Source of the DNA: Somniosus microcephalus
Lineage: Eukaryota
Reading direction: 5' to 3'
Length of the DNA: 64,000 nucleotides
Assembly: GCA_052327205.1 (NCBI GenBank)
Contig: JBMRGM010000043.1
Span: 31,310,001 to 31,374,000, forward strand
How positions within the stretch are numbered: the stretch's first letter is position 1; every line of letters begins with the position of its first letter. The notes below the pieces were generated by a model, which was not told the origin of the DNA, searched no databases, and saw nothing but the letters and a program-made list of their open reading frames with translations. Shown one piece after another: positions 245 through 62,080 of the stretch. A program made the translations under genes and the position numbers.

Positions 245-496
245 CTCCTGGGCCGGAAGTGCTGGTTAGTTTTCCCAGCAGTGGTGTGGTAAAGGAAGGA
301 GAGGAATTTAAGCTGCAGTGTCGATACAGTGGCAAAGCTATTTACACTAATTGGTTAAAAAATAATATACATTTACATGAACCTCAGAGTGAGTTTTATG
401 AATCACTAGCAGACAGCAGCAGTGGAGGCTCTTACCAGTGTGATGTATGGTCAAACAAATCGGAGAGGAGTGAGGCTCTGGAAGTGGTCACAATCG
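245..496 (+). CDS. Gene A Ig exon 1 (APGPEV..LQCRY..W..GSYQC..VVTI)
   Basis: ctgcag acceptor, g/gtaggt donor, phase 1-1, two canonical Cys and Trp. Confidence 0.9.
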
Positions 497-549
497 GTAG
501 GTGAACTTTGACACTTAATAGCATAGAAAATAGACACAAGACAGAATAA

Positions 550-903
550 TAAGCATTCATATAGCGTCTATCACGACCTCCGATTGCACTGCACAGACAA
601 TTAATTACTTTTCAATATATTCACTGATGTAACGTGAGATAAGTGACAGCTAGTTCGGGCAGAGCAAAGCTCCCACAAAGAGCATTGTAATAATGACCAG
701 ATCATTTTACACTTCTATGCTTGCTCTAATGATTGCTCTTTCAATTATTTTTGTTGGATTTTTGACGTCCATCTAAGTGGGGATATGGGGCCTCAGTATA
801 ATGTCTCATTGGAAAGGAACCGTTTCCTGCAATAACGACACCGGGAGTCTCTGGTGTGGGATTCGAACCAACGCCTTATTGTCGCAGAGGCGATTGAGCC
901 ACG
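550..903 (-). mobile_element. Degenerate DeuSINE-like tRNA-derived SINE
   Basis: Reverse complement resembles the SINE at 32669-33065 (gattcgaacc B-box region, aatgaccagat core, tatagcg tail); boundaries approximate. Confidence 0.6.
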
Positions 904-1493
904 CCTACTGTTGATTATTGGCTGCTGAGTCAAACCGCTGGAAGTGGCCACCATCAGTCGCTGAACTTTGACCCATAGTCAGCTCAGCTCTTGTCACGAA
1001 AATTTACTGTTTTAAAGAGGACTCTCAGTATATATTGTGAGACAGTGTATCAAACATATTACTTACTTGAGCAAAATTGCCAAGTGGACACTGGGATGAA
1101 TGATACCATTCTGCCGCACCTCCCTTCAACCAGCTCTGCTCTAAATAGAACAATCCCAGCTCCTTTAGTCTCACCACACCCAATGAACAAATACCAGTCG
1201 TTCCTTGAAAGAGTGCCGAGTTTGTTGCTGATTTGTAGAATCGGGTTTCGAAGTAAAAGTTATTTGATGAACGTTTGAAGGACAACATACGGGGCATCAG
1301 CTGAACATAAGAAGGGACACGTGACTTTCTAATGCCACATTTGTCACTACAGCTTTTCGGGTTATAGGCCTGTTGTTCTTTACTGAAGTGATTACTATAG
1401 ATGCACTCTAATGGAAATATACTATAGGATGTCATACCTGTAGTTTAACATATTACAATTTGTACTTACTTAATATTTCTTACATATTTTCAG

Positions 1494-1754
1494 CTTCTGA
1501 TATGATTTTAACTCTTGAAGTAAAACCAAGAGCCACGCTGTCAGGTGAAAGAATTATCCTGAATTGTTTGGTGTCTGACCAGAAAGGGAGAGGATACTTC
1601 CTGTGGTATCAGAAAGAAGAGATAATACATGGAAGTTCTCAATCTCAGTACATCATAACTAAAGCAGAAATTGCAGATGGGGCATCTTATCGGTGTGAAT
1701 GCAAAATAGGCTACAGGAAGTGGGTCTCGCAGGAAGTAAACCTCACCGTAACAG
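1494..1754 (+). CDS. Gene A Ig exon 2 (SDMILTLEV..LNC..FLWY..DGASYRCEC..VNLTVT)
   Basis: tttcag acceptor, ag/gttggt donor, 261 nt, Ig motifs. Confidence 0.9.
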
Positions 1755-2134
1755 GTTGGTCGCTGGCTTTGCTGTTTTCCTCCCAAAGTTGCTGCTTGTT
1801 AATTTGCTGAAAGATGGAAAACGATGCGAAGAACATTCTTTGGCTCGACAATTTTTGTTGAAGTTGGTAAATATTTGCAATTACTGGGAAAACATTCCAA
1901 GCTGTGCATTGTAGGCAAGCTTCTGGGTCGCATGTGGCAAAATCAGCCACTGCGTTAACTGTAAGGGCCCCATGAATCCGTAGGAGTGCATGTCTCCTTC
2001 TCGGTTGCTCCTGAGAATTATCGGGAAATGTCGTTGGAGTTCATCTGCATTTCATTTCCGTGCTCTCACGCTGCTGGGCGATTGCATGGGCATCCCCGTG
2101 CTCATATCATTAGGCCTGCATATGGGCTAGTAAT

Positions 2135-2350
2135 AAGAGGGTGGTTAGAATGTGGAACTCGCTCCCACAGGGAGTAGTTGAGGGAACTGCAATTAAGGTG
2201 AAGCTAGATAATTACATGAGCGAGAAAGGAATTGAAGGATATCTTGATGGGGTAGATGATGAAGGCTGGGAAGAGACCCGTGTGGAAGATAAGCACCTGC
2301 ATGGACCTATTAGGCCGAATGGCCTGGCTCTCTGCTGTAAATATCGTGTA
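2135..2350 (+). mobile_element. CR1 LINE 3' end fragment
   Basis: VRMWNSLPQGVVE C-terminal ORF2 motif followed by ggccgaatggcct 3'UTR. Confidence 0.75.
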
Positions 2351-3335: not shown

Positions 3336-3590
3336 ATGGCGATGTGGCCTTCCAGGTCGACCCACCTTCGGTTTTGGAAGGAGATGTTCTGAATCTGAAT
3401 TGTCGGTACAGAAAATATTATTTGTGGAAAGATGTTGGCTTTTACAAAGGAAATAGAAGGATCCACTCAATGAAGTTGTATTATTGGAACGCTCTGCATA
3501 GCATTAGAGTGAATAGTTCAAAAGACAGTGGATCATACCATTGTACTATTGACGAGAAAATTTATCGAAGTGTTCATGTTCACGTTCACG
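3336..3590 (+). CDS. Gene A Ig exon 3 (DGDVAFQVDPPSVLEGD..C..FYKG..DSGSYHC..VHVH)
   Basis: attag acceptor, g/gtacgt donor, 255 nt. Confidence 0.9.
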
Positions 3591-4637: not shown

Positions 4638-4913
4638 AACTCTTCTCCAAACCTAAACTGAGGACTGACCCTGCAGTTGAAATATTTGAGGGACACCAGT
4701 TAGTATTCATCTGTATTATTGAAACAATGCCGTACAGTAATGGGCTTCAATACTCATTTTACAAAAATGGCAAAGCTCTGATATTGACTTCATACAACAC
4801 ATTTAAGCTCACGGAGACAGCTTCTTTGAAGGACTCGGGGACTTACCTGTGTGAAGCAAATATTTCCTACCGCGTTGTGAAAAAGAGTGATGAGGTTTCC
4901 ATTGCAGTTAAAG
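4638..4913 (+). CDS. Gene A Ig exon 4 (ELFSKPKL..FIC..YSFYKNG..DSGTYLCEA..KKSDEVSIAVK)
   Basis: cacag acceptor, ag/gtaagg donor, 276 nt; FCRL D3/PECAM-like start. Confidence 0.9.
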
Positions 4914-6242: not shown

Positions 6243-6521
6243 AGGTCTTCTCCATACCTACACTGAGGGCTGAGTCTGGAGCTCAATTATTTGTGGACCA
6301 ACAGTTAAATCTCGCCTGTTTGGTTAAAATATTTCGATCCAATACTTCCTTGAGACTCGTATTTTACAAAGATGGACAATCTCTCACTTCAGCGGCAGAC
6401 AACAACTATTACATCAAGAAGGCATCTCGGCCGGACGATTCGGGGAATTACTGGAGCGAAGCAACTACTTTGAACAGTGAGGTGAAGAAACTGAGTAATC
6501 AGGTTTCCGTTTCAGTCAGAC
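6243..6521 (+). CDS. Gene A Ig exon 5 (EVFSIPTL..LAC..VFYKDG..DDSGNYWSEA; second Cys absent)
   Basis: ttatag acceptor, c/gtgagt donor, 279 nt open frame. Confidence 0.85.
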
Positions 6522-7595: not shown

Positions 7596-7853
7596 ATCGC
7601 AAAGTGGCCTTCAATGTCGACCCACCTTCGGTTTTGGAAGGAGGTGTTCTGAATCTGAATTGTTGGTTCAGAATGCATTATTGGAGGCATAAAGATGTTG
7701 GCTTTTACAAGGGCAATATAAGGATTCACTCAATGAAGTTGACCGATCGGAGAGCTCTGCATAGCATTAGAGTGAATAGTTCAAAAGACAGCAGATCATA
7801 CCATTGCACTGTTGGCAATAAGGAATCACGAAGTGTTCATGTTCACGTTCAAG
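7596..7853 (+). CDS. Gene A Ig exon 6 (paralog of exon 3)
   Basis: attag acceptor, ag/gtacgt donor, 258 nt. Confidence 0.9.
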
Positions 7854-8709: not shown

Positions 8710-9523
8710 TGATGGCTGTCTAACACCGTGCTACTTTAGCCAATAATTAACCCAGGGTGGGTCTCCTCCCGTGCTAACGCCGGCAGCTATCTTTCTCCTC
8801 CCGCCCCACCTCAGAGGAGAATTTGGCGGCTTCCCATTACCAGCCTGTTACATCAAGAGGCTGACGGGGAGTATTCCCCCACTAAACCGAAATATGATGG
8901 TGCCTCTCTCCCTAACAACCACGATGATGAGTTGACAAAATGCACCAGCAGGTACTCCTGAAAATTCAGTGGCGGGTCCGCTGATGGACTGTGTGGAAGG
9001 ACACAATAAGCAGTGTGCTCCTCTCCCCTCTCTTTTGCCCTTTCCACTTACCTGTTTGGCATAAGCTTAATCACAGGCTCCTAATAAAATCTGTACGCTG
9101 ATGCCGTTGGATGCCCTTATCATCGCAACGGGTGAGTTATATCATCACTGATCCATCACCCTGGCCGGGAGAATCGGGAGTCTTTTTAATTTCAGATGGT
9201 GACAGCTGAGCTGGGGGCTGGCTAGGGACAGAGCAATGTAGCTGTGGATATTGGTGGAGTTCACCCTGGTCATACTAGATGGTGAAGACGCAGCAGAGAA
9301 TGGCTAAAAGAGAAAAGATCTAAGGGAGGATATTCCTGCTGATAATTAAGCCTTGCCCAGTATGGAATTCCGGTTTCAGCAGAATAAATTAAGCAGGTTA
9401 AGTTCTCCGCAAACAAAGCAGCGAGAGGAAATCCATAAAAACATAATAATGCTTCCTGCTCTAGTGATCCACAATACAGCTGCTGGTTACCATTAAGTAT
9501 AGGCGCCCATCGTGGCTATTCTC

Positions 9524-10614
9524 TAGATGTAATCTCTCCAAATTTGCAGACAACACAAAGCTTGCTGGGCGTGTGTGCTATGAGGAGGATGCCAAGAAAC
9601 TCCAGGCTGATTTGGAGAGATTGGGTGATTGGGCAAAAGCGTGGCAGATGCAATATAACGTGGATAAATGTGAGGTTATCCACTTTGGTGGCAAAAACAG
9701 GAAGGCAGATTATTATCTGAATCGCAATAGATTGGGAGAAGGGGAAGTGCAACGAGACCTGTGTGTCCTTGTGCACCAGTCGCTGAAGGTAAGCATGCAG
9801 GTGCAGCAGGTGGTTAAGAAGGGAATTGGCATGTTGGCCTTCGTAGCGAGATGGTTTGAGTACAGGAACAAGGATGTCTTGCTGCAGTTATACAGGGCCG
9901 TGGTGAGACCACACCTTGAGTATTGTGTGCAGTTTTGGTCAGCTTATCTGAGGAAGGATCACAGATCACAGAAACCCCACAGTGCAGATAGAGGCCATTT
10001 CGGCACATATCCCACCCAATCCCCGTAACCCCTACACCAAAACATATCCCCATTTAATCCCCCTAACACTAAGGGTCAATTTATCATAGCCAATCAACCT
10101 AACCCGCCATGGAAGGAGTTCAGCGAAGATTCACCAGGCTGATACCTGGGATGGCAGGAATGACGTATGAGGAGAGATTGGGTCGATTGGGCTTGTCCTT
10201 GCTGGAGTTTAGAAGAATGAGAGGGGATCTCATTGAAACTTATAAAATTCTGACGGGACTGGACAGACTAGATGCAGGAAGAATGTTCCCGATGGTCGGG
10301 CAGTCCAGAACCAGGGGTCACATTCTAAGGATAAGGGGTAAGCCATTTAGGACAGCAATGAGGAGGAATTTCATCACCCAGAGAGTGGTGAACCTGTGGA
10401 ATTCTCTGCCACAGAAGGCAGTAGAGGCCAATTCATTAAATATATTCAAGAAGGAGTTGTATATATTTCTTAAGGCTAAAGGGATCAAGGGGTATGGGGA
10501 TAAAGCAGTGACCAGGTACTGAATTTGGTTGATCGGCCATGATCGCATTGAATGGCGGAGAAGGCTCGTGGGGCCGAATGCCAACTCCTGCTCCTATCTT
10601 CTATGTTTCTATGT
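9524..10614 (+). mobile_element. 5'-truncated CR1 LINE (RT C-terminus + 3'UTR)
   Basis: LQADLERLGDWAKAWQMQYNVDKC, RPHLEYCVQFW, RRMRGDLIE; (ttctatgt)n tail; candidate TTCTC TSD at 9519-9523 and 10615-10619. Confidence 0.92.
9960..10106 (-). mobile_element. 3' part of HE1/V-SINE-like shark SINE nested in the CR1
   Basis: Reverse complement reads cgggttaggttgattggc..aaattgacccttagtgt..aatggcctc..ctgcactgt; interrupts the CR1 ORF after LRKD. Confidence 0.75.
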
Positions 10615-10710
10615 TTCTCGGTATTGGCTTGCTCTTATTATCAATCTCTGCTATTTGTTTAACACAGTGATAGGAACTGTTACCTATCAATCCATATTCT
10701 GTTTTCACAG

Positions 10711-10989
10711 AACTCTTCACCAAACCTAAACTGAGGTCTGAGCCTGCAGTTGAAATACTTGAGGGAGACCAGTTAAAATTCATCTGTTTTATTGAAAATA
10801 TACCGTCAAATATTTGCTTAAAATATTCATTTTACAAAAATGGCACAGCTCTGATCTTGACCCCATACTACAAATATATTCTCACTGAGGCAGCTTCATT
10901 GAAGGACTCAGGGACTTACCAGTGCGTAGCAAATGCTTTCGACTTTGGTGTGAAAAAGAAGAGTGATGAGGTTTACATTTCGGTAACAG
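10711..10989 (+). CDS. Gene A Ig exon 7 (ELFTKPKLRSEPAVEILEGDQLKFICFIENIPSNICLKYSFYKNG..DSGTYQCVA..VYISVT)
   Basis: Not in the ORF track; translated by hand; ttcacag acceptor, ag/gtatgg donor, 279 nt open. Confidence 0.9.
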
Positions 10990-12177: not shown

Positions 12178-12456
12178 AGCTCTTCTCCGAACCTACTTTG
12201 CGGGCTGATTCTGGAGCTCAATTATTTGAGGGCCAACAGATAAAACTCGCCTGTTTGGTAGAAATATTTCGATCCAATTCTTCCTTGAGACTCGTATTTT
12301 ACAAAGATGGACAACCTCTCAATTCAGCGGCAGACCACAGCTATTACATCAGGGAAGCATCTCGGCCGGAAGATTCGGGGATTTACCGGTGTGAAGCAAC
12401 TACTTTGAACCGTGAGGTGAAGAAACTGAGTAATCAGGTTTCAGTTTCAGTCAGAC
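12178..12456 (+). CDS. Gene A Ig exon 8 (ELFSEPTL..LAC..DSGIYRCEA)
   Basis: ttatag acceptor, c/gtgagt donor, 279 nt. Confidence 0.9.
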
Positions 12457-13146: not shown

Positions 13147-13434
13147 GAACCCCAGTGTCAAAACCGGAACTGGCAATCAGCCCTGGTAAAGAGTTAATAG
13201 AAGGAGACACAGCGTCGTTAACCTGCTCAGTGTTCAACGGTTCTACCCCGATTACTTACATTTTCTACAAAGACCCGGATAAAGAACTCTTCCGTGAGGA
13301 GTCCAACCTAACCGAAATTAATTACCAAATCAGTGAAATCAACCAAAGCACCCAAGGGGATTATAGTTGCGGTGTTTCAAACAAAGCGACAGGACGTCCT
13401 CTGCAAAGCGATGTTGTTACAGTTTCAGTGATAG
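13147..13434 (+). CDS. Gene A Ig exon 9 (TPVSKPEL..LTCSVFNGSTPITYIFYK..GDYSCGVSN; FCRL D5-like)
   Basis: tgcag acceptor, ag/gtgagt donor, 288 nt. Confidence 0.9.
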
Positions 13435-15287: not shown

Positions 15288-15389
15288 CACAAAGTCACAC
15301 AACCGCGATCACAGCAGCCGTTGTTCCACTTTTTCTGATCGCTACCCTGATTGCACTGGTTTCCTTCAAACTTCGGAAAAAGAAACAAG
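15288..15389 (+). CDS. Gene A transmembrane exon (QSHTTAITAAVVPLFLIATLIALVSFKLRKKKQ)
   Basis: ttccag acceptor, ag/gtgagc donor; hydrophobic helix without charged residue followed by basic stop-transfer. Confidence 0.92.
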
Positions 15390-15916: not shown

Positions 15917-15947
15917 ACAATTCCTCAAGTGTTTCACAGCCGCAGGG
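15917..15947 (+). CDS. Gene A cytoplasmic exon 1 (DNSSSVSQPQG)
   Basis: tctag and gg/gtaagt; identical in gene B. Confidence 0.85.
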
Positions 15948-17973: not shown

Positions 17974-18065
17974 GGTGACAACTGAAAATAGATCTGTACC
18001 TCCGAGTGAAGAAACATCTGCGAGCAATTTCGAGTATGCAGTTGGGGGATCAGCCCCAAATACTG
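17974..18065 (+). CDS. Gene A cytoplasmic exon 2 (VTTENRSVPPSEETSASNFEYAVGGSAPNT)
   Basis: aag acceptor (cag in gene B), g/gtaagc donor, phase 2 to 1. Confidence 0.8.
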
Positions 18066-19046: not shown

Positions 19047-19103
19047 CTTCTAGTTCTGATCAGGTAACCTACAGTTTAGTACAAGGCACGAAGCCCATGG
19101 AAG
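19047..19103 (+). CDS. Gene A cytoplasmic exon 3 with ITIM VTYSLV
   Basis: Polypyrimidine-ctacag acceptor, ag/gtaagg donor, 57 nt. Confidence 0.88.
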
Positions 19104-19849: not shown

Positions 19850-19915
19850 ATATTACCGGAAATGCTGCCAATTTAGTGTATTCGGAGGTCACGATCAGAA
19901 AGTCACGAGAATGTG
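19850..19915 (+). CDS. Gene A cytoplasmic exon 4 with ITIM LVYSEV
   Basis: Long pyrimidine tract-tttag, g/gtaaat donor, 66 nt. Confidence 0.88.
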
Positions 19916-20039: not shown

Positions 20040-23000
20040 TGGGGGTTGGGAATCAGGTGAAGGGGAACTTCGAAAGTCAAAGAGAAGGTTGAAGGTAATA
20101 GTGCAAGGTAGCGATAGGGTTAATGATAACTAGAGAGTGACAGAAGGAGATAGAGCATACAAACATAAACCTGCAACTACACATAGATTCAGAGTCGGTA
20201 AAAATGGTATAAAATAAATAAAGGTTATTTATCTGAATGCACACAGCATTCGTAACAAGATAGATGAGTTGGTGGCATGAAGAGAAATAAATGTGTGTGA
20301 TCTGAAAGCCATTACAGAGACGGGGTTGCAAGGTGACCAAGGCTGGGAACTGAATATTCAGGGGTATTTGACATTTCGGAAGAATAGGCAGAAAGCAAAA
20401 GGAGTTGGGTAGCTCTTTTAATAAAGGATGATATCAGTGCAGTGACGAGAAATGAAATTGCCTCAGGAAATCAAGATGAAGATATAGTTTAAACGGAGAT
20501 AAGAAATAATAAGTGAAATAAGTCACTAGAGGGAGCAATCTATAGGCCTCGTAAAAGTACCTACACTGTAGGACAGAGTATAAATCTTGAAATAAGATTG
20601 GCTTGTAAGAAATGTACTGTGATAATCATGGGCAATTTTAATCTTTATATAGATGGAACAAATCGAATTGACAAGGTTAGCCTTGAGGACGAGTTCATAG
20701 AATGGATTCAGGATGGTTTGCTAGAACAATACGTTGTGGAATCAACCAGGGAGAAGGCTATTTTAGACCTGGCAATATGTAATGAGGCAGGATTAATTCA
20801 TGATCTCATGGTAAAGGATTCTCTAGGGAACAGTGATCATAGCATGATGAATTTCTAATTCAGTTTGAGGGTGAGAAACTTGGGTCTGAAACTAGTGTCC
20901 TAAACTTAAATAAAGGCAGTTACAAAGGTATGAAGGCAGAGTTGGCTAACGTAGACTGGGAAAATAGATTAATGAGTAAGACGGTAGAAAATCAGTGACA
21001 GATATTTAAGGATATTTTTCGTAACTCTCAGCAAAGATTTATTCCAGCGTCAAAGGCAGACTCTACGAGAAGGATGAACATCTGTGGCTAACTAAAGAAG
21101 TTAAAGACGGTATCAAATTGAAAGAAAAGGCAGATAATGTTGCAAAAATTAGTGGTAGGTCAGAGGATTGGGAGATTTTTGGAATTCGGCAAAGGATGAA
21201 TAAAAAACTAATAAAGAGGAAGAAATAGATTATGAAAGGAAACTAGCACAAAATATAAAGGAACAGACAGTAAGAGCTTCTACATGTATATAAACGGGAA
21301 GAGAATAGCTAAAGTAAATGTTGGTCACTTAGAGGATGGGACTGGGGAATTAATAATGGGAAATAGGGAAATGGCAGAGACTTTGAATACACTAAAAGCA
21401 TCACAATAATAATTGGTAATCAAGGGGCTATGTTCACAATATATATCAGTAATTTAGGTGAGGGTACCAAATGTAATATTTCCAAGTTTGCTGACGTCAC
21501 GAAACCAGGTGGGATTGTGAGTTGTGAGGAGGATGCAAAGAGGCTTCAAGGTGATTTGGAGAAGTTGAGTGAATGGGCAAATACATGGCAGATGCAGTAT
21601 AACGTGGATAAATGTGAAGTTATCCATTTCGGTACAAAAAACAGAACGGCTGAATATTATTTAAATGTTGATAGATTGGGAAATGCTGAATTACAGAAGG
21701 ACCTGGCCGTCCCTGTACACCAGTCACTGAAAGCAAACATGGAGGTGCAGCAAGCAGTTAGGATGGCAAATTATATGTTGGCCTCCATTGCAAGATGACT
21801 TAAGTAGAGGAAAAAGGAAATCTTACTACATTATACGTGGCCTTGGTGAGACCTTGTGCATTTTTGGTCTCCTCACCTAAGAAAGGATAAACTTGCCACA
21901 GAGGGAGTGCAGCGAATGTTCACCAGTCTGATTCCTGGGAAGGCAGGACTGTCGGATGAGCAGAGATTTGGTCGACTAGGCCTGTATTCACTAGAGTTTA
22001 TAAGAATGAGAGGGGATCTCATTGAAACGTATAAAATTCTGACAGTGCTAGACAGACGGGATGCAGGGAGGATGTTTCCCTGGCTGGGCGGGTGGGGTCT
22101 AGAACGATGGGTCACAGTCTCAGGATGCGGGGTAGGACATTTAGGACTGAGATGAGGAGAAATTTCTTCACTCAGAGGGTGGTGAACCTATGTAATTCTC
22201 TACCACAGATGGCTGTCGAGGCCAAATAACTGAATATATTTTTAGAAGGAGATAGCTAGATTTCCAGACACAAAAGGCATCAAGGGGTATGAGTAGAGAG
22301 CGCGAATATGATATTGAAATAGATAATCAGCCATGATCACATTGAATGGCGAGCAGGCTCAAAGGGATGAATGGCCTACTCCTGCTACTAATTTTCAATT
22401 CACTATGTTTTCTAAATCAATGACTATCACTAGAGAAAAACTGCGAGGCAAATTAATGAGACTAAAGACTGACAATTGCCCTGGACCTGATGGCCTACTT
22501 TCAAGGGTCTTAAAAGAAGAGGCTCCAGAGATACTGGATGCGTTGTTTGTAATCGACCAAAATTCCATGGATTCTGGCAAGCTCCCAGTGCCTTGGAGAA
22601 CCGCAAATGTAGCACTTCTATTAAAGAAAGGAGGGAGGCAAAAAGCAGGAAACTATAGGCCAGTTAGCCTAACATCTGTCATTGGGAAAATGCGGGAATC
22701 CATTATTAAGGAAGTCATAGCAGGACATTTAGAAAATCCTAATGCAAACAAGCAGAGTGAACATGGTTTTATGGAAGGGAAATTGTGCTTGACAAATTTA
22801 CCAGAGTTCTTTGAGGATGTAACGAGCAGGGTGGATAAAGGGGAACCATTAGATGTGGTGTATTTGAATTTCCAGAAGGCATTCGATAAGGTGCCACATA
22901 AAAGGTTACTGCACAAGATAAGAGCTCATGGGGTTGGGAGTAATATATTAGCATGGATAGTGGATAGGATAACTAACAGAAAAATGAAAAGCCGGGATAA

Positions 23001-23995
23001 ATGGGTCATTTTCCAGTTGGCAAACTTTAACTAGTGGGGTGCCACAAGAATCAGTGCTGGGGCCTCAACTATTTACACTCTATAGTAATGACCGGGCCAA
23101 ATTTGCTGATGATACAAAGATAGGTGGGAAACAAATTGTGAGGAGTACACAATTAGTTTGCAAATATAGATATGTTAAGTAAGTGGGCAAAAATATCGCA
23201 GATGAAGTTTAATGTGGGAAAATGTGAGATTATCAACTTTGGTAAGAAAATTAAAATAACAAATTATTATTTAAATGGAGGGAGACTATTTAATCCTGCC
23301 ATACAGAGGGATCTGGGTGTCCTCGTATTTGAAACACAAAAGGTTAGCATTCAGGTACAGAAAGTAATTAGGAAGGCAAATGGAATGTTGTCCTTTATTG
23401 CCAGGGGGTGGAGCATTAAAGTAGGGAAATCTTGCTACAACTGGAGTACTGCGTGCAGTTTTGGTCTCCTTATTTCAGGCGGGATATACCTGCATTGGAG
23501 ATAGTTCAGAGAGGGTTCACTAGGCTAATTCCTGAGATGAAGCGATTGTCTTCTGAAGAAACGTTGAGCAGGATGGGCCCATACACATTGGTGTTTAGAA
23601 GAATGAGAGGTGATCCTATTGAAACATATAAGATTCTGAGGGAGCCTGACAGGGTAGATTTAGGGAGGATGTTTCCCCTCGTGGGGGAATCTAGAAGTAG
23701 GGAGCACAGTCTCAGGATAAGGGATCGCCCATTTAAAATGGCGATGAGGAGTAATTTCTTCTCTGAGGTTCGTGAATCTTTGGAATTCTCTACCCCAGTG
23801 AGCTGTGGAGGCGGAGTCATTGATTGTATTCAAGGCGGAGATAGACATATATGTGAGCTACAGGGGAGCGAAGGGTTTTGAGGAGCGGATGGGAAAGTGG
23901 CGTTGAGGGCAATATCAGATGAGAAATGATCTTATTGAATGGTGGTGCTGGTTCGAGGGACCGAATGGCCTACTCTTGCTCCTATTGCTTATGTT
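20040..23995 (+). mobile_element. Composite of two decayed CR1 LINEs (EN + RT C-terminus to about 22395; second RT copy about 22400-23995)
   Basis: LYLNAHSIRNK, ILDL..LGNSDH endonuclease motifs; PGPDG, NYRPVSLTS, FQKAFDKVPH, KFADD; frameshifts and stops. Confidence 0.9.
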
Positions 23996-24289
23996 TCTTA
24001 TGAAATATCACGTAGATGTTATTAGCACATGTAATTTTTACCTTACTCAGCCTGGCCGAAAATGGACAGGGTCTGGTGAAATGCGGTTCTCAATCGCACC
24101 CATTTTTACCCTCCTACTACAATGGAGAGAAAATCCACTGGGGATAAACCCAGAAATTGTCCCGATCCCTTCAGTTTACCGGCAGGGTAGGTGAGATTAA
24201 AATGACCCCGGATTAGGCTGGATTCATCTAATTCTGTTCATCAACTTCCCCAGATTGTTTCATTTATAATGCGTCTCCTTTATTTACAG

Positions 24290-24321
24290 GTAATGATGGT
24301 GGCGCCTCAGGAAGGAAACAG
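24290..24321 (+). CDS. Gene A cytoplasmic exon 5 (GNDGGASGRKQ)
   Basis: ttacag acceptor, cag/gtaagt donor, phase 1 to 0; conserved in gene B. Confidence 0.82.
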
Positions 24322-25804: not shown

Positions 25805-25933
25805 GCTAACAAGAATGGTCCCAACGACTATTGTGTCACATACGCCATAGTTAACCGTGCAAACACTGAAGCTAGTTTGGAAGGAGGCCCAATGGAAGAA
25901 GGCTGTGTCTACGAAAACTTTCCACGGAAATAA
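25805..25933 (+). CDS. Gene A last coding exon (ANKNGPNDYCVTYAIVNRANTEASLEGGPMEEGCVYENFPRK*)
   Basis: tccag acceptor, phase 0, ITIM VTYAIV, terminal YENF, TAA at 25931-25933; frame and stop conserved in gene B. Confidence 0.88.
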   Translation, partial: ANKNGPNDYCVTYAIVNRANTEASLEGGPMEEGCVYENFPRK

Positions 25934-30874: not shown

Positions 30875-30905
30875 ATGATTCACATCTGTCGCCTTCTGAC
30901 CTTGT
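30875..30905 (+). CDS. Gene B leader exon S1 (MIHICRLLTL)
   Basis: ATG + 31 nt then t/gtaagt; length, ATG and donor conserved at 59293. Confidence 0.75.
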
Positions 30906-33628: not shown

Positions 33629-33658
33629 TGCAAATTACTCATCAGGCGACCACACAAG
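33629..33658 (+). CDS. Gene B leader mini-exon S2, 30 nt (LQITHQATTQA)
   Basis: cttctctcttgcag acceptor, aag/gtatga donor, phase 1-1, identical to 62051-62080. Confidence 0.8.
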
Positions 33659-35957: not shown

Positions 35958-36212
35958 CCCATGTCCCAGAAGTAGTCCTTAGCAATCCGAGCGATGGAAT
36001 CGTGAAAGAAGGGGAGACATTTTACCTGCAGTGTCGATACAGAGGCATGGAAAAATTGGCTTATTGGTATAAAGATGAGACTTATATTCATTTTAAATAT
36101 ATGTTCTTTGAAAGATATGCAGATAGTCGCAGTGGAGCGTCTTACCAGTGTTCAGTGCCGCTGCCTTGGTCCTCCTCTGAGAAGAGTAAACCTCTGGATT
36201 TAGTCACCATTG
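35958..36212 (+). CDS. Gene B Ig exon 1 (AHVPEVVL..LQCRY..YWYK..SYQC..LDLVTI)
   Basis: ctacag acceptor, g/gtaggt donor, 255 nt. Confidence 0.9.
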
Positions 36213-38028: not shown

Positions 38029-38295
38029 CTTCTGATATGAATTTAACTCTGGAAGTGAATCCAACATCCGCACTGTCAGGTGACAGTATTATCCTGAAAT
38101 GTTTGATGCCTTCCTGGAAATGGAGAGAAGGTTTTCCCTTCCTGTGGTATCGAGATAAACAGTTAATAGCAGAAACTGACGAATCTCAGTACACCATAGA
38201 AAACGCAAAAGAGTCAGATACGGCACCATATCGGTGTGAACTCAAAATACGTTACAGGAAGTGGATCTCCCCGAATGTAACCATCACCATAAAAA
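38029..38295 (+). CDS. Gene B Ig exon 2 (SDMNLTLEV..LKC..FLWY..YRCELK..VTITIK)
   Basis: tttgcag acceptor, a/gttggt donor, 267 nt. Confidence 0.88.
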
Positions 38296-39083: not shown

Positions 39084-39360
39084 AACTCTTCTCCAAACCT
39101 AAACTGAGGACTGAGCCTGCAGTTAAAATATTTGAGGTAGACCAGTTAAAATTCATTTTTTTATTGAAACAATGCTGTTCAATATTAGGCTTCAATACAC
39201 ATTTCACAAAAATGGCAAAGCTCTGCAGTTGAATTCATACATCAACTCTAAGCACATGGGGGCAGCTTCTTTGAAGGGCTCGGTGACTTAGCCTTGTTGA
39301 GCAAATGCTTTCTACCACCGTGATAACAACAGAGTGATGAGGTTTCCATTACGGTAGAAG
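39084..39360 (+). pseudogene. Pseudo-exon homologous to gene A Ig exons 4/7
   Basis: Acceptor cag changed to ccg, frameshift at the first Cys, in-frame tag/tga near the second Cys. Confidence 0.85.
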
Positions 39361-41122: not shown

Positions 41123-41410
41123 GAATCCCAGTGTCCAAACCGGAACTGGCAATCAGCCCTGGTAAAGAGTTACTGGAAGGTGACACAGCGTCGTTAACCT
41201 GCTCAGTGTTCAACGGTTCTACCCCGATTACCTACATATTCTACAAAGGCCCAAATAAAGAACTCTTCCGAGAGGAGTCCAACCTAACCGAAATTACTTA
41301 CCAAATCGGTAAAGTCAACCAAAGCACCCAAGGGGATTATATTTGTGGTGTTTCAAACGAAGCGACCAGACGTCCTCTACACAGCGATTTTGTTACGGTT
41401 GCAGTGCTAG
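41123..41410 (+). CDS. Gene B Ig exon 3 (IPVSKPEL..; paralog of gene A exon 9)
   Basis: ttacag acceptor, ag/gtgagt donor, 288 nt. Confidence 0.9.
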
Positions 41411-43071: not shown

Positions 43072-43374
43072 TTCCTGCAGCTGGTGCTTCTCTCACTTCC
43101 AATGCCAACAAAACTGAGATTTCAGCGGGGGACCGTCTCTTTCTCCAGTGCCTGGTGAAGAGAGGCACTGCACTGCTTTTCCGCTGGTACCTGAACAACC
43201 AACAGTTAGGAAACAACAGCGAATCTTATCACTTAAGCAGGGACGGGAGTGAACTCATTATCAATTCATTCCAGACAGGCCATGGAGGTCGATATCACTG
43301 TGTAGCGACCAACAGAGGGAGCTTTGAAGGAATAGTAATGACAACCAGCAATTATATCGATGTCACGGTACCAT
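43072..43374 (+). CDS. Gene B Ig exon 4, membrane proximal (VPAAGASL..LQCLVKRGT..FRWY..GRYHCVATN..IDVTVP)
   Basis: cactag acceptor (alternative in-frame ctgcag at 43080), weak t/gtaaca donor, 303 nt. Confidence 0.8.
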
Positions 43375-44204: not shown

Positions 44205-44306
44205 CACAAAGTCACACAACCGCGATCACAGCAACAGTTCTTCCACTTTTTCTGATCGCTGCCCTGATTGCACTGGTTTTCTTCAAACTTCGGAAGCAGA
44301 AACAAG
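44205..44306 (+). CDS. Gene B transmembrane exon (TAITATVLPLFLIAALIALVFFKLRKQKQ)
   Basis: ttccag and ag/gtgagc; uncharged helix. Confidence 0.92.
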
Positions 44307-44831: not shown

Positions 44832-44862
44832 ACAATTCCTCAAGTGTTTCACAGCCGCAGGG
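44832..44862 (+). CDS. Gene B cytoplasmic exon 1
   Basis: Identical to 15917-15947. Confidence 0.85.
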
Positions 44863-46862: not shown

Positions 46863-46954
46863 TGTGGCAACTGAAAATAAATCTCTAACCCCGAGTGAAG
46901 AAACATCTGCGAACAATTTCGAGTATGCAGTTGTGGGATCAGCCCGAAATACCG
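46863..46954 (+). CDS. Gene B cytoplasmic exon 2 (..NNFEYAVVGSARNT)
   Basis: cacag and g/gtaagc, 92 nt. Confidence 0.82.
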
Positions 46955-47943: not shown

Positions 47944-48000
47944 CTTCTATTTCCAATCATATAATCTACAGTGTAGTCCAAGGCACGAAACCTATGGAAG
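47944..48000 (+). CDS. Gene B cytoplasmic exon 3a with ITIM IIYSVV
   Basis: ctgcag and ag/gtaaga, 57 nt. Confidence 0.85.
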
Positions 48001-48779: not shown

Positions 48780-48836
48780 CTTCTAGTTCTGATCAGATAA
48801 CCCACAGTTTAGTACAAGGCACGAAGCCCATGGAAG
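48780..48836 (+). CDS. Gene B cytoplasmic exon 3b (ITHSLV, Tyr lost)
   Basis: ctacag and ag/gtaagg, 57 nt; lies in an about 840 bp tandem duplication. Confidence 0.78.
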
Positions 48837-49601: not shown

Positions 49602-49667
49602 ATATTACCGGAAATGCTGCCAATTTAGTGTATTCGGAGGTCACGATCAGAAAGTCACGAGGCTGTG
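49602..49667 (+). CDS. Gene B cytoplasmic exon 4 with ITIM LVYSEV
   Basis: tttag and g/gtaatt, 66 nt. Confidence 0.88.
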
Positions 49668-49789: not shown

Positions 49790-52700
49790 AGTGGGGAGGG
49801 GGGAGGGTTCAGTTGAAGGGGAATTTAGAAAGTCAAACAGAAAGGAGGAGGTAACAGTGCAAGGTAGCGATAGGGGTAATGATAACCAGAGATTGACAGG
49901 AGGAGACAAAGCATACAGACATAAACGTGCACTTGCAAACAGATTCAGAGTAGTTAAAAATGGTATAAAAATAAATAAAAGCTCTTTAACTGAATGCATG
50001 CAGCATTCATAACAGGATAGATGAGTTGCCGGCACAAATCGAAATAAATGGGCATGATCTGATAGTCATTACAGAGACGGGGTTGCAAGGTGACCAATTC
50101 TGGGAACTGAATATTCAAGGGTATTTGATATTTCGGAAGAATAGGCAGAAAGCAAAAGGAGTTGGGTAACTCTTTTAATAAAGGATGTGATCAGTGCAGT
50201 GGTGAGAAATGATATTGGCTCAGAATATCAAAATATAGAATTTGTTTTAACGGAGATAATAAATAGTAAGGGAAATAAATCATTAGCGGGAGCAGTCTAT
50301 AGCACTCCTAACTGTAGCTACACTGTGTAGGACAGTGTATAAATCAAGAACTAATAGGGGCTTGTAAGTAAGGTACTGCGATAATCATGGGCGATTTTAA
50401 TATTCATATAGCTAGAACAAATCTAATTGACAAGGTTAGCCTTGAGGTCGAGTTCATAGAATGTATTCGGTATGGTTTCTTAGAACAATACGTTGTGGAA
50501 TCAACCAGGGTGATGGCTATTTTAAATCTGGTAATATGTAATGGGGCAGGATTAATTAATGATCTCATGGTAAAGGATCCTCTTGTGAAGAGCGATCATA
50601 GCATGATGAATTTCTAATTCAGATTCAGGGTGAGAAACTTGGGTCTGAAACTTAAATAAATTCAATTACAAAAGGTATGAAGAAAGAGTTGGCTAAAGTA
50701 GACTGGGAAAATAGATTAAAGTGTAAGACGGTAGATAGGCAGTGACAGATATTTAATGAGATTTTTCATAACTCTCAGCAAAGATTTATTGCAGCGTGCA
50801 AGAAAGACTCTACGAGAAGGATGAACATCCGGGGCTAACTGACGAAGTTTAGGATGGTATCAAATTGAAAGAAAATGCATAACATGTTGCAAAGATTCGT
50901 AGTAGGTGAGAATTGGGAAATTTTTGAAAATCAGCAAAGGATGACTAAAAAATTAATAGAGGTAGAAGATAGATTATGAAAGTAAACTAGCAAAGAATAT
51001 AAAAAACAGAGACTAAGAGCTTCAACAGGTATATAAATGAAAGATAATAGCTAAAGTAAACGTTGGTCCCTTAGATGATGGGACTGGGGAATTAATAATG
51101 GGAAACGGGGAAATTGCAGAGACATTTAACAAATATTTTGTATTGGTTTTCACGGTAGAAGACACAAAAAGCATCCCAATGATAATTGATAATCAAGGTG
51201 CTGTATTCACAATATATATCTAAAATTTGGGTGAGGGTCCCAAATGTAATATTTCCAAGTTTGCTGACATCACGAAACTAGGTGGGATTGTGAGTTGTGA
51301 GGAGGAGGCTAATAGGCTTCAAGCTAATTTAGACAAGTTGATTGAGTGGGCAAATACATGGCAGATGCAGTATAACGTGGATAAATCTGAAGTTATCCAT
51401 TTCAGTACGAAAAACAGAAATGCAGAATATTATTTAAATGTTGATAGATTGGGAAATGTTGATGTACAGACGGACCTGGGCGTCCCTGTACACCAGTCAC
51501 TGAAAGCAAACATGCAGGTGCAGCAAGCAGTTAGGAAGGGAAATTGAATGTTGGCCTTCATTGCAAGAGGAGTTGAGTACAGGAGCGAGGATGTACATTT
51601 ATACAGGGCCTTGATGAGACCTTGGGAGTACGGTGTACAGTTTTGTTTTCCTTACCTAAGAAAGGATATACTTACGATAGAGGGAGTGCAGCGAGGGTTC
51701 ATCAGACTGATTCCTGGGATGGCAGGACTGTCGTCTGAGGAGCGATTGGGCCGACTAAGCTTTATTCACGAGAGTTTAAAAGAATGTGAGTGTATCTCAT
51801 TCAAACGTATAAAATTCTGACAGGGCTAGACAGACTGGATGCAGGGAGGATGTTTCCCCCGGCTGGTGGATCTAGAAGGATTGGTTACATTCTCAGGATG
51901 GCGTACATTCAAGGTTCTTAAATGAAGTGGCTGCAAAGATAGTCGATGCATTGGTTGTAATCAACCAAATTTCCCTGGATTCTAGAGAGCTCCCAGCGGC
52001 TTGGAAATTCGCAAATTTAACGCTCCAATTGAAGAAAGGAAAGAGGCCAAAAGCAGGAAGCTATTGGCCAGTTAGCCTTACATCTGTCATTGGGAAAATG
52101 ATGGAATCCATTATTAAGGAATGAATAGCAGGACATATAGAAAATCATAATGCCATCTACTTGAGTCAACATGGTTTTATGGAAGGGAAATTGTGCTTGA
52201 CAAATTTATTGGAGTCCTTTGAGGATGTAACGAGGAGTGTGGATAAAGGGGAACCAGTAGATGTAGTGTATTTGAATTTGCAAAAGTCATTCGCTAAGGT
52301 GCCAGATAAAAGGTTACTGCACAAGATAAGAGCTCTCGGGCTTGGGGGTAATATATTAGCATGGATAGAGGATTGGCTAACTAACAGAAAACAAAGAGTC
52401 GGGATAAATGGGTCATTTTCCGGTTGGCTAACTGTAACTAGTGGGATGCCACAGGTATCAGTTCTGGGGCCTCCACTATTTACAATCTATATTTATGACC
52501 TGGCCAAATTTGCTGACGATACAAAGGTACATGAGAAACAAGTTGTGAGGAGGACACAATTAGTTTGCAAAGGGATATAAATATGTTAAGTGAGTGGGCA
52601 GAAATTCGGCACATGCAGTATAATGTGGGAAAATATGAGATTATCCACTTTGGTAAGAAAACTAATGAAACAAATTATTATTTAAATGGGGAGAGACTAC

Positions 52701-53400
52701 CTAATGCTGCCATACATAGGGGACTGGGTGTCCTCATACTTGAAACACAAACGGTTAGCATGCAAGTACAGCAAGTAATTAGGAAGGCAAATGGAATGTT
52801 GACCTTTATTGCCAGGGGGTGGAGCATAATAGTAGGGAAGTCTTGCTACAACTGGAGTATTGCGTGTAGTTCTGGTCCCCTTATTTCAGGCGGGATACAC
52901 TTGCATTGGAGGCAGTTCAGAGATGGTTCACTAGGTTAATTCCTGAGATGAAGGGGTTGTCTAAAGAAGAAATGTTGAGCAGGGTGGGCATTTACGCATT
53001 GGAGTTTAGAAGAATGAGAGGTGATCTTATTGAAACATATAAGATTCTGAGGGTGCTTGACAGGGTAGATTCAGGGAGGATGTTCCCCCTCGTGGGGGAA
53101 TCTAGCAGTAGTGGACAAAGTTACAGGATATGGGATCGCTCTTTTAAAACGATGATGAGGAGGAATTTCTTCTCTGAGGTTGTGAATCTTTGGAATTGTC
53201 TAACCCAATGAGCTGTGGAGGCAGAGTCATTGAGTATATTCAAGGTGGAGATAGACATATATTTGAGCTACAGGGGAGTTAAGGGTTTTGAGGAGCGGAT
53301 GGGAAAGTGGGGATGAGGCCAAGTCAGATCAGTCATGGTCGTATTGAATGGTGGTGCAGGTTCGAGGGGCCGAATGGCCTACTCTTGCTCCTATTTATGT
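49790..53400 (+). mobile_element. Composite decayed CR1 LINEs, paralogous to 20040-23995
   Basis: EN and RT motifs; same internal junctions as the gene A copy. Confidence 0.9.
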
Positions 53401-53701
53401 TTCTCATGAAATATCACGTAGATGTTATTAGCAGGTGTAATTTTAACCTAACTCAGCCTGGTCGAAAAGGGACTGGGTCTGGTGAAATCCCTGTTGTCAA
53501 TCGCACCCAATTTTACTCTCCTACTACAAGGGAGAGTAAAGTCCATTGGGTGTACACCCACCCTGAAATTGTCCCGATCTCGTCAGTTTACTGCCAGGGT
53601 GGGTGATACTAAAATGACCCCGGATTAGGCTGGATTAATCTGATTCTGTTCATCAACTTCCCCAGATTGTTGCCTTTATAATGCATCTGCTTTATTTACA
53701 G

Positions 53702-53733
53702 ATAATGATGATGGCGCCTCAGGAAGGAAACAG
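53702..53733 (+). CDS. Gene B cytoplasmic exon 5 (DNDDGASGRKQ)
   Basis: ttacag and cag/gtaagt. Confidence 0.82.
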
Positions 53734-55205: not shown

Positions 55206-55334
55206 GATAACAAGAATGGCCCCATTGACTATTGTGTCACATACGCCTCAGTTAACTGCGCAAATACTGAAGCTAGTTTGGAAGGAGGTCCAATGGAAGA
55301 AGGCTGTGTCTACGAAAACCTTCCACGGAAATAA
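55206..55334 (+). CDS. Gene B last coding exon (DNKNGPIDYCVTYASVNCANTEASLEGGPMEEGCVYENLPRK*)
   Basis: tgcag acceptor; ITIM VTYASV, terminal YENL, TAA at 55332-55334. Confidence 0.88.
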   Translation, partial: DNKNGPIDYCVTYASVNCANTEASLEGGPMEEGCVYENLPRK

Positions 55335-58300: not shown

Positions 58301-59292
58301 ATTCTAATTAGAGTTCGCCACAATAGTAAAGAGTTGGTATTTATTGCAGATCTGGGCAAAGAGGACAATATGGCTACCAATAGCTGACCTGTACTAGAAG
58401 TAGTGTCTACGTACTGATCATATACATTCTGCAGTAGGAGAGTCGAAGCAGTAGTCATGGACCTGCACCAGTAGGTGATACCTAGAGTGAGCCCGAGAGA
58501 GGAACAATACTGTGCGACTCAAGGAGATGCCCCATATAAGTCTGGTATTAGGCTTCAGCAATTTGAGGTTCGAATCACCCATTTGCTAAACATTAATGAC
58601 GAGATTGAACTCGCGGGACTTAAATGGTTAATTGTGCCAGAGTGTAACAGGTTCAGTGGTCTGATTTTTCGCTGGTATCAGCACTTCGCCTCCCTTCCCC
58701 CTCTAACGTTGTACCAGGCCATATACACAGAGCTGGGGTGACCGCTTCCCTAAGCCTGTGAAAAAAACAAGCCTTCAGACTGGGGCCACAGAGCAGGCCA
58801 GTCTCTCTGTTAACGGTATAAGCTGTGGTTAGAATAAATCATATTTAAAACAGTTTGAAGAGATGTCTCCAGCATGGATGCCAACTGTTCCCTTCTGATA
58901 AGAATTTATTATAAAACTGACAGGGCTCAGTTAACTTTTCAGCGTTAGGGTGGACTCGTCATCACGTCTGGTTTGATTTCCTATTGTCTCCAATGTGGTC
59001 AGCAGTCAGACTGATCTCAGTGTGCAGTCGCCTGGTGCATGAACAGTGAGCTCCACAGCTGTAGACTGCTTCTTGGGGAACTCGCTCCAGCCGCTGTCTC
59101 CTCATTCACCGTAAGTACAGACTCGGGATCTGCGCGTGCAGGCGTTTGGTACTGAAGAATTAGAACAGTGTCAGCGGCTGAATGTGATTCTATGATTTCA
59201 CTTTTCACGTGAACAGAACTGAAAACAGCTGATCCGAAGCGCGGGTCTTCACAGAGGGAGGTGGACTGCTGCTCGGATCCCCCGCATTCAAA

Positions 59293-59323
59293 ATGAAGCA
59301 CATCTGTCGCCTTCTGATCTTCT
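59293..59323 (+). CDS. Gene C leader exon S1 (MKHICRLLIF)
   Basis: ATG + 31 nt, t/gtaagt donor. Confidence 0.75.
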
Positions 59324-62050
59324 GTAAGTGAATCACAAATACTTCCAGTGCCTTTGAAAATCAACGTCACTCACCCCGGACCGTTAATCAGATTAATAAG
59401 ACTCATTCTGTGAGAGGGATCATCACTCTAAATTAATATTCAGACTTTATTAAGGTCAAACATTCAATTAAAAAGCATTGAAATGTCATTTCTATGCTTC
59501 AGTTTTAATCAGAATTGAATGCAACAACAGAAATATGTTTGCTTAGTCAGGCTAACAGGATCTTTCTGCTCATCTAAGGGGAACCTTCTTTACTATTAAA
59601 GGTTGCAGCCCAATTAAGATTGCTTCTAAACGGTCCAATGTTCATTATTTTACCAATTATTTAGCCTCACCTGCAGAATCTGGTTGGACATTTCTTATTG
59701 TTCTAGTTTTGCTTATTAGGAAAAAAAAAAAAATTTATACGCTTCATATCAAATATCAGCGTTGGCTCAGTTAACTCACTCTTACAAATTGCTATTAATA
59801 CATGCGGTGAGATTTACAGTGTGTGGCTTCTGTAGCTAGATGTTAAACCTGGTCCGTATCATTGCTTGATGATTCGAGTACCACAGGCAAGTTTCTTGTT
59901 AACATCTGCCACAGAGAGAGAGAGAAAGATAGAGAGCGAGAGAACGGCAGAGCGAGAGAGAGAGTCAGAGCGAGAGACAGATAGGGACAGAGAGAGACAG
60001 ATAGACAGAGATTGGAAGAAAGTAACAATCTCGATGTGCACGAGGGAGAGTGACAGAGAGAGAGAACGGACAGGAGTGGTTTTCAACTCAGCTTTTCACA
60101 TTCTTTATGAAGGGCTTATTTTATTTTCAGGTGTGAGGGACAAAATAGATATTAGCGGGATGACATCCCTTGAGTTAACAAAGCTGAGGAGAACACATTT
60201 ACTATGATTTTACTTGAGCTAAACTGACGGCTTTAGGGGGTTTGGCAGGGAATTTTAAAATGCTGGATCTTCAATATTAATTTCTGATGCTGTTTCCTGG
60301 AATTTAGACAGAAGTGACTCTTTATGGTCACATGACATTGAGGCTGCCTTCCTGTGAGATGCTGACCTCAGCGCTCTATTGTCTTGTTACCCACTGGACC
60401 ACAAGACCAGCAAACACGAAAAAACAACAGGGCTTGCATCTTTAATGTACCATCGACTCCTTCACCAGAATCTCATCTATTTTAGTAACTTGACATTAGT
60501 TGTGGGACCATGTTGATTAAATCTAGTTCGACAGATTAATGAGGTAGAGCATAAAAGATGTGAAGTTAATCTCAAATTGATCATTCTTAAGCATATAATA
60601 GGCCCCATGATTTATGTGTTGCACAGCACATGAAACCCACTTTTTGGAAATATTGGCCTAACTGAATGCTTGAAACATTCACCCTATTGAGTCCTAGCTG
60701 GACGAAAGTCCCAGGGTCTACATGTTGAACAATGAAATGCAGACACATCTGCATTGATCATTGACCTGTTTGCAATTATTTCTGCAAAGTTTGCAGCAAC
60801 AAGCATTGCCTTAGTAGTGTGATTCCTGTGGTCTGAGGTGTGACAAAAGCTTTGCTGCTTTCTGCTTCTAGCTGCTGGGTCATGTACTGTCTTCACGAGT
60901 AGCAGTTGCAACCCTGGCAAAACTTGTAATTCTGATTAGGTTAAAGATGAGTTAACTGATAATAGGAACATTACAACAGGAGTAGGCCATTCAGCCCTTG
61001 GAGACTGCTCTGTCATTCAACTATATCATGATTGATCTGTACCTCCACTCCAATTACCCCACTTGCTCAACATCCATTGTTACCCATACTCAACTCGTGT
61101 CAGCCATGGCTCAGTGTATAGCATTCTCGCCTCTGAGTCAGAAGGTTCGTGGATTCCGGTCCCAATCCAGGGACTTGAGCACAATCATCTAAGCTGATAC
61201 TCCAGTGCAGTGCTGAGGGAGTGCTGCACTGTCGGATTGGCTGTCTTTCGGATGAGATGTTAAAGTGACGCCCCTTCCAGGGCGTTTATCCCTGGTGCCC
61301 TGGGCAATATTTGTCCATCAATGACGTAACAAAAACAGATAATCTGCTCATTATCAACATCATTGTGTGAACATTGGCTGCCACATTTCCTACAGTCACT
61401 TAACTTTAAAAGTCTTTCATTGGTTTTAAAACGCTTTCGGAAGTTCGGAGGTCTTGAAAGGTGCTATAGAAATGCAACCATTTCTTTCATTTTTAACAAT
61501 AAATTATCGATCTCCATCTTGATAGCAGCAATTTACCCCCAGAATCCACAGCGTTTTTTGCAAAGAGCGATGCAATTTCTCACTACACATTGTGTGAAAA
61601 AGTGCTTCCTGATTTCCATCCTAAATGGCCTATAAACAATTTTAAAGAAATGTTCCCTGCTCCTTGACAGAACAATCACACTCAGTGGCTCTCAGAACAA
61701 TGAACATTTCAATCTTTGTCAGTTTCCTTTCATCTGGCAGCAGCTTTTCCATGTAGTCCTCAGAGCATTAGGAACTTAAATAAAAACAATTTATCTATGT
61801 TCGTGAGAGGGTCAACTGGAATAATTCGATGTATTAATATTTTACATTTACTTCAACTGAACTGAATACCTGGCGGCACATATAGACGGGCGGCAGATGT
61901 GTTACTGATTGTTTTATGTCCCTGCTGAAGTAGAATTTCACGCCCTGGGTTTTTCCTGTATTCAGCTGCCTTACAGCTTAGCAGCTTAGGTCAACCTTGA
62001 AGATGGTCTCAGATAATGAAACATATTTTACATTGTCTTCTCTCTTTCAG

Positions 62051-62080
62051 TGCAAATTACTCATCAGGCGACCACACAAG
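62051..62080 (+). CDS. Gene C leader mini-exon S2 (rest of the gene lies beyond the window)
   Basis: Identical to 33629-33658 with tttcag and ag/gtatga. Confidence 0.8.

Follow-up and report, generated by a model that had tools for sequence, protein, structure and literature searches.

Fc receptor-like (FCRL) genes carry a split leader with a second exon of 21 bp, and their immunoglobulin (Ig) domains are described by a D1-D6 scheme (PMC7940838, PMC2413239; these and the other papers given here by PMC number were available in part). Ttyh1 and Prpf31 are framework genes of the leukocyte receptor complex (LRC) (PMC6557307), and TTYH1 linkage has been shown in Xenopus (PMC4536121). For sharks, the available text of Akula 2014 (PMC4016189) reports no FCRL, FcRgamma or C2-only LRC genes, and that of a 2026 review (PMC13337447) describes FCRLs as lacking and asks how antibodies act without Fc receptors. 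Here we analyse a 64,000-nt stretch of the Somniosus microcephalus genome (contig JBMRGM010000043.1, hereafter C43, positions 31,310,001-31,374,000; ‘the window’), which holds all or part of three FCRL-like genes, A, B and C; other C-numbers denote contigs of the same 6.4-Gb genome. With a probability of roughly 0.7, we propose that they belong to a cluster of type I inhibitory leukocyte receptors, evolving by birth and death, that forms an elasmobranch branch of the FcR/FCRL family and lies within the shark LRC. Chondrichthyan FCRL-like genes as such are probably not new: for elephant shark, Wang, Belosevic and Stafford reportedly described two fcrl genes in 2021, together with a single LRC-like gene, and Wang and colleagues are said, in the same year, to have linked teleost LITR and chondrostean FCRL-like genes to vangl2.

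Self-comparison of the window revealed long tandem duplications at 78-87% identity. As a preliminary description of the window had claimed, the paralogs run head-to-tail on the + strand, with one phase-1 exon per Ig domain, a split leader, a 102-nt uncharged transmembrane exon and a tyrosine-motif tail of six or seven exons. Its count of three paralogs needs qualification, as only gene B is complete within the window; the leader of gene A lies upstream, and gene C contributes two leader exons only. The claimed spacing of 28.4-29.4 kb holds for the leaders (28.4 kb, B to C), the transmembrane exons (28.9 kb) and the last exons (29.4 kb), but not for the first Ig exons of A and B, which are 35.7 kb apart because gene A holds an internal duplication of a c-d-e exon triplet (letters denote Ig domain types; the full family architecture is a-b-c-d-e-f-g). 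Gene A comprises nine phase-1 Ig exons in the order a-b-c-d-e-c-d-e-f, the transmembrane exon and six tail exons. Spliced in silico, its 16 exons, joined by coordinates, give 977 open codons up to the stop with GT-AG junctions, and the 14 exons of gene B (Ig order a-b-f-g) stay open over 579 aa, provided that one frameshifted D3-type exon is skipped. All nine exons submitted to Pfam matched Ig families, the first domain being of the Ig_2 type.

To type the domains, we compared those from 16 of 26 shark proteins and 13 window exons with profiles for tetrapod FCRL D1-D5, PECAM1 D1-D6, Siglec/CD22-like domains and one lizard LRC-like protein, with D-type labels that we assigned from domain position and from the scores of a first round. 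Broad tetrapod profiles typed c as D2 in 16/16 cases and d/e as D3 in 31/40 (PECAM D4 in 9/40), while a and b leaned weakly to D1/D2; g fell in the D4 class in 12/12, because that class held amphibian membrane-proximal domains. Profile-profile comparison with HHalign scored c at 129 for D2, with the next class at 90 and no PECAM class above 75, and d/e at 168-170 for D3 against 139-148 for PECAM D4. In phylogenetic trees, b joins tetrapod D1 (support 88/90), c joins D2 (97/69) and g joins caecilian and frog FCRL domains (99/98) in a clade that also takes in a gene on C21. Against solved structures, the family profile retrieved FCRL5 first (5.8e-78), followed by FCRL4 and FcgammaRI; individually, b best matched FcgammaRI/III, c FCRL5 and (weakly) D2 of FcepsilonRI, and e D3 of FcgammaRI. 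Foldseek searches with a Heterodontus model (predicted local distance difference test score, pLDDT, 72) gave the top target-normalised TM-scores to FCRL5 and FcgammaRI (0.49-0.60, against at most 0.32 for the other rows listed), a normalisation that favours short targets; by E-value PirB leads, but long Ig chains dominate that ranking and we did not base any identity on it. Clusters named FCRL and PECAM in the ESM Atlas were matched alike (0.97-0.98). The ectodomains thus follow the FcR order D1-D2-D3, with b weakly D1 and f as the exception.

The cytoplasmic tail points to an inhibitory class of receptor, coupled as it is to an uncharged transmembrane segment. The 134-aa tail of gene A carries three hexamers matching the immunoreceptor tyrosine-based inhibitory motif (ITIM) consensus, a number reached by 0.05% of 20,000 shuffles (p 0.0005), as well as a terminal YEN motif, and related shark and ray proteins show both kinds of motif. 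Family transmembrane exons were uncharged in 30/30 read (10 of the 40 were not read), so that paired activating members, with a charged transmembrane segment on an a-g ectodomain, were not found among them. One NxxR-like string at C43 30.245 Mb was dropped as a chance occurrence, with no Ig exon in the surrounding sequence examined.

Three other identities were considered and rejected. For CD22, Siglec or CEACAM, the expected N-terminal V-set pattern is missing, the first domain being Ig_2, and Siglec C2 is the best class in 1/9 a and 6/14 b domains. LRC-type Ig domains were set aside with mean scores of 8-27 bits on the one-protein LRC profile, which was never the best class. A PECAM1 ortholog was discounted, as exons scoring best with PECAM1 lie elsewhere, at C21 69.8-69.9 Mb. 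There, between 69.78 and 69.92 Mb, such exons occur twice, ~110 kb apart, marking either a PECAM1 duplicate or an MILR1-like gene.

The exons of genes A, B and C listed next are on the + strand. In gene A the N-terminal exon a (245..496) is weakly D1-like and unplaced in the tree, exon b (1494..1754) is FcR D1-like and exon c1 (3336..3590) is of the FcR D2 type. Exons d1 (4638..4913) and e1 (6243..6521) are of the D3 type, the second cysteine of e1 being changed to serine. They are followed by the internal duplicate c2 (7596..7853), by d2 (10711..10989) and e2 (12178..12456), the latter being the exon matched to FcgammaRI D3, and by f (13147..13434), which belongs to a group of FCRL D4/D5 and PECAM1 D6. 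The uncharged transmembrane exon (15288..15389) leads to tail exons 1 (15917..15947), 2 (17974..18065, with FEYAVG), 3 (19047..19103, ITIM VTYSLV), 4 (19850..19915, ITIM LVYSEV) and 5 (24290..24321), and to the last coding exon (25805..25933), which holds the ITIM VTYAIV, a terminal VYENF and the stop; ray proteins end in the same motifs. The leader exons of gene A lie at C43 31,304,961 and 31,308,921, 5.0 and 1.1 kb upstream of the window. Upstream of gene A, C43 31,294,900-31,305,000 holds three copies of the first and two of the second leader exon, as extra or alternative first exons.

Gene B begins with leader exon S1 (30875..30905, 31 coding nt) and mini-exon S2 (33629..33658, 30 nt), followed by Ig exons a (35958..36212) and b (38029..38295), the frameshifted and presumably skipped D3-type exon (about 39085..39360, ends approximate), f (41123..41410) and g (43072..43374), the last grouping with amphibian FCRL membrane-proximal domains. 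Beyond its uncharged transmembrane exon (44205..44306), the seven tail exons (44832-44862, 46863-46954, 47944-48000, 48780-48836, 49602-49667, 53702-53733 and 55206-55334) carry the ITIMs IIYSVV, LVYSEV and VTYASV; exon 3 is duplicated, one copy having its tyrosine changed to histidine. Gene C is represented by leader exons S1 (59293..59323) and S2 (62051..62080, 30 nt), with the remainder beyond the window. There, downstream, its first Ig exon is disrupted, and the sequence up to the next leader yielded no match to tail exons 3-5. Introns across the window are filled by decayed reverse transcriptase fragments resembling long interspersed nuclear elements (LINEs), at 9468-10618, 21367-23998, 34601-35645, 51204-53404 and 62610-63987.

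The window samples a much larger family, in line with the earlier suggestion of an expanding group of shark inhibitory receptors with FcR-type domains and ITIM tails. Its transmembrane exon has at least 40 matches in the genome (a floor, as 40 of 46 candidates were scored), all on C43 at 21.5, 25.3-25.5 and 30.3-31.9 Mb. Relatives occur in 14 shark and ray species (Narcine, Pristis, Mobula, Hemitrygon, Heptranchias, Pristiophorus, Heterodontus, Mustelus, Cetorhinus, Carcharodon, two Scyliorhinus, Stegostoma and Chiloscyllium), the closest named proteins being from Pristiophorus (67%) and Heptranchias (63%); no family protein from a chimaera turned up in the protein searches. The preliminary description called such receptors poorly characterised. 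Our literature search, with most subscription journals outside its reach, found no paper describing the cluster or its LRC position, while the proteins themselves are already in RefSeq under inconsistent automatic names (FCRL2-6, FcgammaRI-like, PECAM-like, hemicentin-like and perlecan-like). One salmon protein bears the name ‘Fc receptor-like protein 5’ yet resembles PECAM1, a sign that automatic names are unreliable in this superfamily. We also observed a second FCRL-type subfamily in the same blocks (C43 25,634,320-25,656,750 on the - strand, and 25,273,662 and 30,272,095-30,285,922 on the + strand). Its domains include a clear D1 (53 bits), one resembling D4 and two of the D5 type (D5 being clear, at 80 bits). 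With an uncharged transmembrane segment, it is closer to tetrapod FCRL than the window genes are; a search for a leader mini-exon of 18-36 nt in it found none.

At scaffold level, the cluster is part of the shark leukocyte receptor complex. C43 carries both of the LRC markers that we tried, PRPF31 at 16.3 Mb and, between the receptor blocks, a Tweety gene at 26.9-27.1 Mb, an exon of which has TTYH1 as its sole match among solved structures. Ten kilobases beyond the last family exon, two-domain genes start, an exon of which matches LILR, PIR or OSCAR in 23/25 solved matches; a similar LRC-type exon falls with FCAR, A1BG, IGSF1, KIR and LILR clusters in the Atlas. The transmembrane exon of these LILR-type genes has an arginine and a C-terminal glutamate, resembling that of activating LRC receptors but without the asparagine of NxxR. 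It has 39 matches, 38 of them on C43 between 23.2 and 42.2 Mb, and the genes examined have LRC-type rather than a-g ectodomains in 7/7 cases, their first domains often tying between LRC and FCRL D1 profiles. Along C43, LRC-type genes are followed by FCRL-type genes, TTYH1, more LRC-type genes, more FCRL-type genes and again LRC-type genes. As an observation in its own right, the at least 38 LILR-like genes at 23.2-42.2 Mb, with two or three domains, the arginine-bearing transmembrane segment and a short tail, make up a large, probably activating, shark LRC family; near 32.06 Mb (32,059,387, - strand) a LILR-type gene is followed by an uncharged transmembrane-like exon, a possible inhibitory LRC member. 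An FcRgamma transmembrane exon was found at C40 10.6 Mb, contrary to the 2014 report of its absence from sharks. We take it to be FcRgamma rather than CD3zeta on the features of its sequence. FCRL-type, C2-only LRC-type and FcRgamma genes are all present in the studied shark genome, contrary to the available text of Akula 2014 (PMC4016189).

Several results weigh against our reading, and they concern the position, the working state and the domain kinship of the family. First, none of four 1q23-type markers is on C43: FcRgamma and a VANGL are on C40, UFC1 on C41 and RGS-RhoGEFs on C26 and C12. The synteny proposed as a check in the preliminary description placed the cluster off the FCRL-type locus and on the LRC-type chromosome. 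(VANGL exons of equal scores and spacing also occur at C1 309,052-321,916 and C14 77,357,105-77,369,962, through duplication or assembly error.) In all three genes the leader consists of a 31-nt and a 30-nt exon, departing from the 21-bp rule for the second FCRL exon, a rule that only a fraction of XFL genes keep; the split leader, earlier offered as an FCRL hallmark, is not diagnostic. At each of the three FCRL/LRC junctions examined on C43, with gaps at 25,238,421, 30,236,404 and 31,887,578, there is a 500-N stretch, so the adjacency of the two gene types rests on scaffolding, and 150 kb of gap-free sequence from 25.625 to 25.775 Mb held no identifiable neighbour gene. These gaps and the stretch without neighbours, together with the linkage of tetrapod FCRLs to 1q23 markers in the available text of PMC2413239, would suit true FCRL orthologs of 1q23-type origin that a rearrangement in the shark lineage carried to the LRC chromosome, or that scaffolding misplaced there. 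We consider this doubtful: the FCRL-type sites at 21.5, 25.3-25.7 and 30.3-31.9 Mb are all on C43 and interleaved with LRC-type genes, and a caecilian D1-D2 query, of low sensitivity, had only two matches in the genome, both on C43 and none on C40.

Second, expression is faint. In one of two same-species RNA runs, 12 of 13 repeat-poor bins had first mates on the minus strand (one also on the plus strand) at a depth of 0.03-1.57, as weak sense transcription would give in a stranded library; the other run gave almost no reads. Depth stays at or below 1.6x in one of two runs, with the source copy ambiguous among near-identical copies, and reads fall mostly on the LINE-like intron fragments. The RNA mapping yielded weak reads and, among the matches listed, no splice joint for the family, repeats having filled the joint tables. 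In addition, ten A-type copies match that of the window at 98.9-99.7% identity across 2.6-3.1 kb and lie ~70 kb apart in 5/8 intervals, which points to very recent amplification or, in part, to an artefact of the assembly. Crude pairwise ratios of non-synonymous to synonymous substitution (dN/dS) span 0.8-1.4 (b and c), 0.5-1.35 (d) and 0.5-0.9 (e), with 0.42 (f) and 0.36 (a); several b, c and d pairs reach about 1-1.4. This suggests that binding falls to a variable b-c-d unit carried by a conserved stalk, although values near 1 also fit drift in redundant copies. Most copies, those of the window included, might on this evidence be redundant recent duplicates or haplotype artefacts, many of them not expressed, an explanation to which the broken gene C and several broken g exons also lend weight. 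It is nonetheless unlikely, as A and B are open throughout their exons, 14 other species have intact relatives, and the copies are not identical, substitutions setting them apart. For bamboo shark B cells, the available part of PMC11372145 describes ‘fcgr1a-like, fcrl3, fcrl5’ as high. A bamboo shark protein named FcgammaRI-like is a family member and a candidate counterpart of the genes of that paper; a search of four of its supplement files for fcrl5, fcrl3 and fcgr1a found nothing.

Third, the per-domain comparison favours FCRL kinship for b, c and g and is less clear for d/e and f. The membrane-proximal f scores best with PECAM1 D6 in 15/16 cases; among solved structures its best single stretch is CD276, and FCRL5 comes first only on summed score. 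With mammal-only FCRL profiles, d/e prefer PECAM D4 in 37/40, so that their typing depends on the breadth of the reference. The tree places d/e with both D3 and PECAM D3/D4, and gives f no firm place; approximately unbiased (AU) tests rejected none of three groupings (p 0.18, 0.62 and 0.37), and constraining d/e with PECAM D3/D4 gave a log-likelihood 3.56 above that of the free tree. The typing of a and b is weak, with the Siglec C2 matches given above. The C21 gene that groups with shark g, at 57.08 Mb, combines PECAM D5-like exons with its g-type exon and is perhaps related to C17orf99. A shark-specific expansion of the PECAM1/MILR1/C17orf99 lineage, or a chimera of PECAM-like stalk and FcR-like tip, acting as ITIM adhesion or checkpoint receptors and resembling FCRL through superfamily ancestry, would draw on f, on the near tie of d/e, on the multi-exon tail, on the PECAM-like RefSeq names, on the kinship of g with a gene of the PECAM1-bearing C21 and on a second Tweety gene there (which may mark C21 and C43 as products of an old duplication), but is the least likely of the three, given that PECAM1 has its own locus, that D2-type c has no PECAM1 counterpart and that the D1-D2-D3 order is that of FCRL.

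We return to an inhibitory FcR/FCRL branch within the LRC, whose domain order has been reshuffled through exon duplication and loss. ITIM signalling is understood from mammalian ITIM receptors. By analogy, a ligand would cluster the receptor, a Src-family kinase would phosphorylate the ITIMs, and recruitment of SHP-1/SHP-2 or SHIP would damp B-cell or myeloid activation; YEN may serve to recruit Grb2. Likely activating counterweights are the LILR-type genes next to the cluster, whose products have an arginine in the transmembrane segment and would pair with FcRgamma. The N-terminal variable D1-D3 unit is the likely binding site. Two D2 tryptophans play a role in classical Fc receptors. Present in echidna and caecilian domains, they are absent in 16/16 shark D2, making classical Fc binding by the family unlikely. 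Ig binding stays conceivable because goat FCRL5 D2 also lacks the two tryptophans and human FCRL5 has a solved complex with IgG-Fc. A microbial or other fast-changing ligand is our tentative first candidate; Ig bound in a non-classical, FCRL5-like mode is possible, MHC or another self protein is doubtful and homophilic binding improbable. The shark ectodomains offer specific candidates for assays of Ig binding.

What merits following up is the LRC placement. FcR-type genes among KIR/LILR-type genes hint that the two families once shared one cluster. We tentatively postulate that sharks keep an ancestral jawed-vertebrate complex of FcR-type and KIR/LILR-type genes around TTYH1, with about 40 inhibitory FcR-type and about 38 activating, FcRgamma-pairing LILR-type genes, that the 1q23 locus arose by later translocation, and that some of these proteins are the missing IgM, IgW or IgNAR receptors.

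Compared with known systems, the family appears from its sequence to work like an inhibitory FCRL and has FcR-type domains, yet departs from strict membership in leader and synteny. Mammalian FCRL3/4/5 and FcgammaRI are its best solved-structure matches, reach the top target-normalised TM-scores (0.56-0.60) among the Foldseek rows listed and share its domain order and ITIMs; the shark genes differ in their 30-nt rather than 21-nt second leader exon, the extra a domain, f nearer to PECAM D6, D2 without tryptophans and a different chromosome. PECAM1 has D3/D4- and D5/D6-type domains akin to d/e and f and a multi-exon ITIM tail, but exists as a separate ortholog on C21, without FcR-type D1/D2 and with no multigene cluster. 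The LRC receptors LILR, KIR, CHIR and OSCAR (PMC6557307) share the TTYH1 and PRPF31 framework, massive expansion and the joint presence of inhibitory and activating members; they are unlike the window domains, as the low LRC-profile scores indicate, and in the shark the inhibitory members are FcR-type and those with the transmembrane arginine LILR-type. Among bony fishes, sturgeon and paddlefish FCRL-like D2 domains group with shark c and tetrapod D2, while teleost LITRs are reported in the available text of PMC2413239 to be without D3-D5. With Xenopus XFL, also in the available part of that paper, the shark family shares a large lineage-specific cluster, a D1-D2-D3 core with repeated D3, exon shuffling, a two-exon leader and ITIM tails; the XFLs, however, are paired, about half having an NxxR transmembrane segment, and keep 1q23-type synteny, in contrast to the uncharged segments and LRC locus of the shark.

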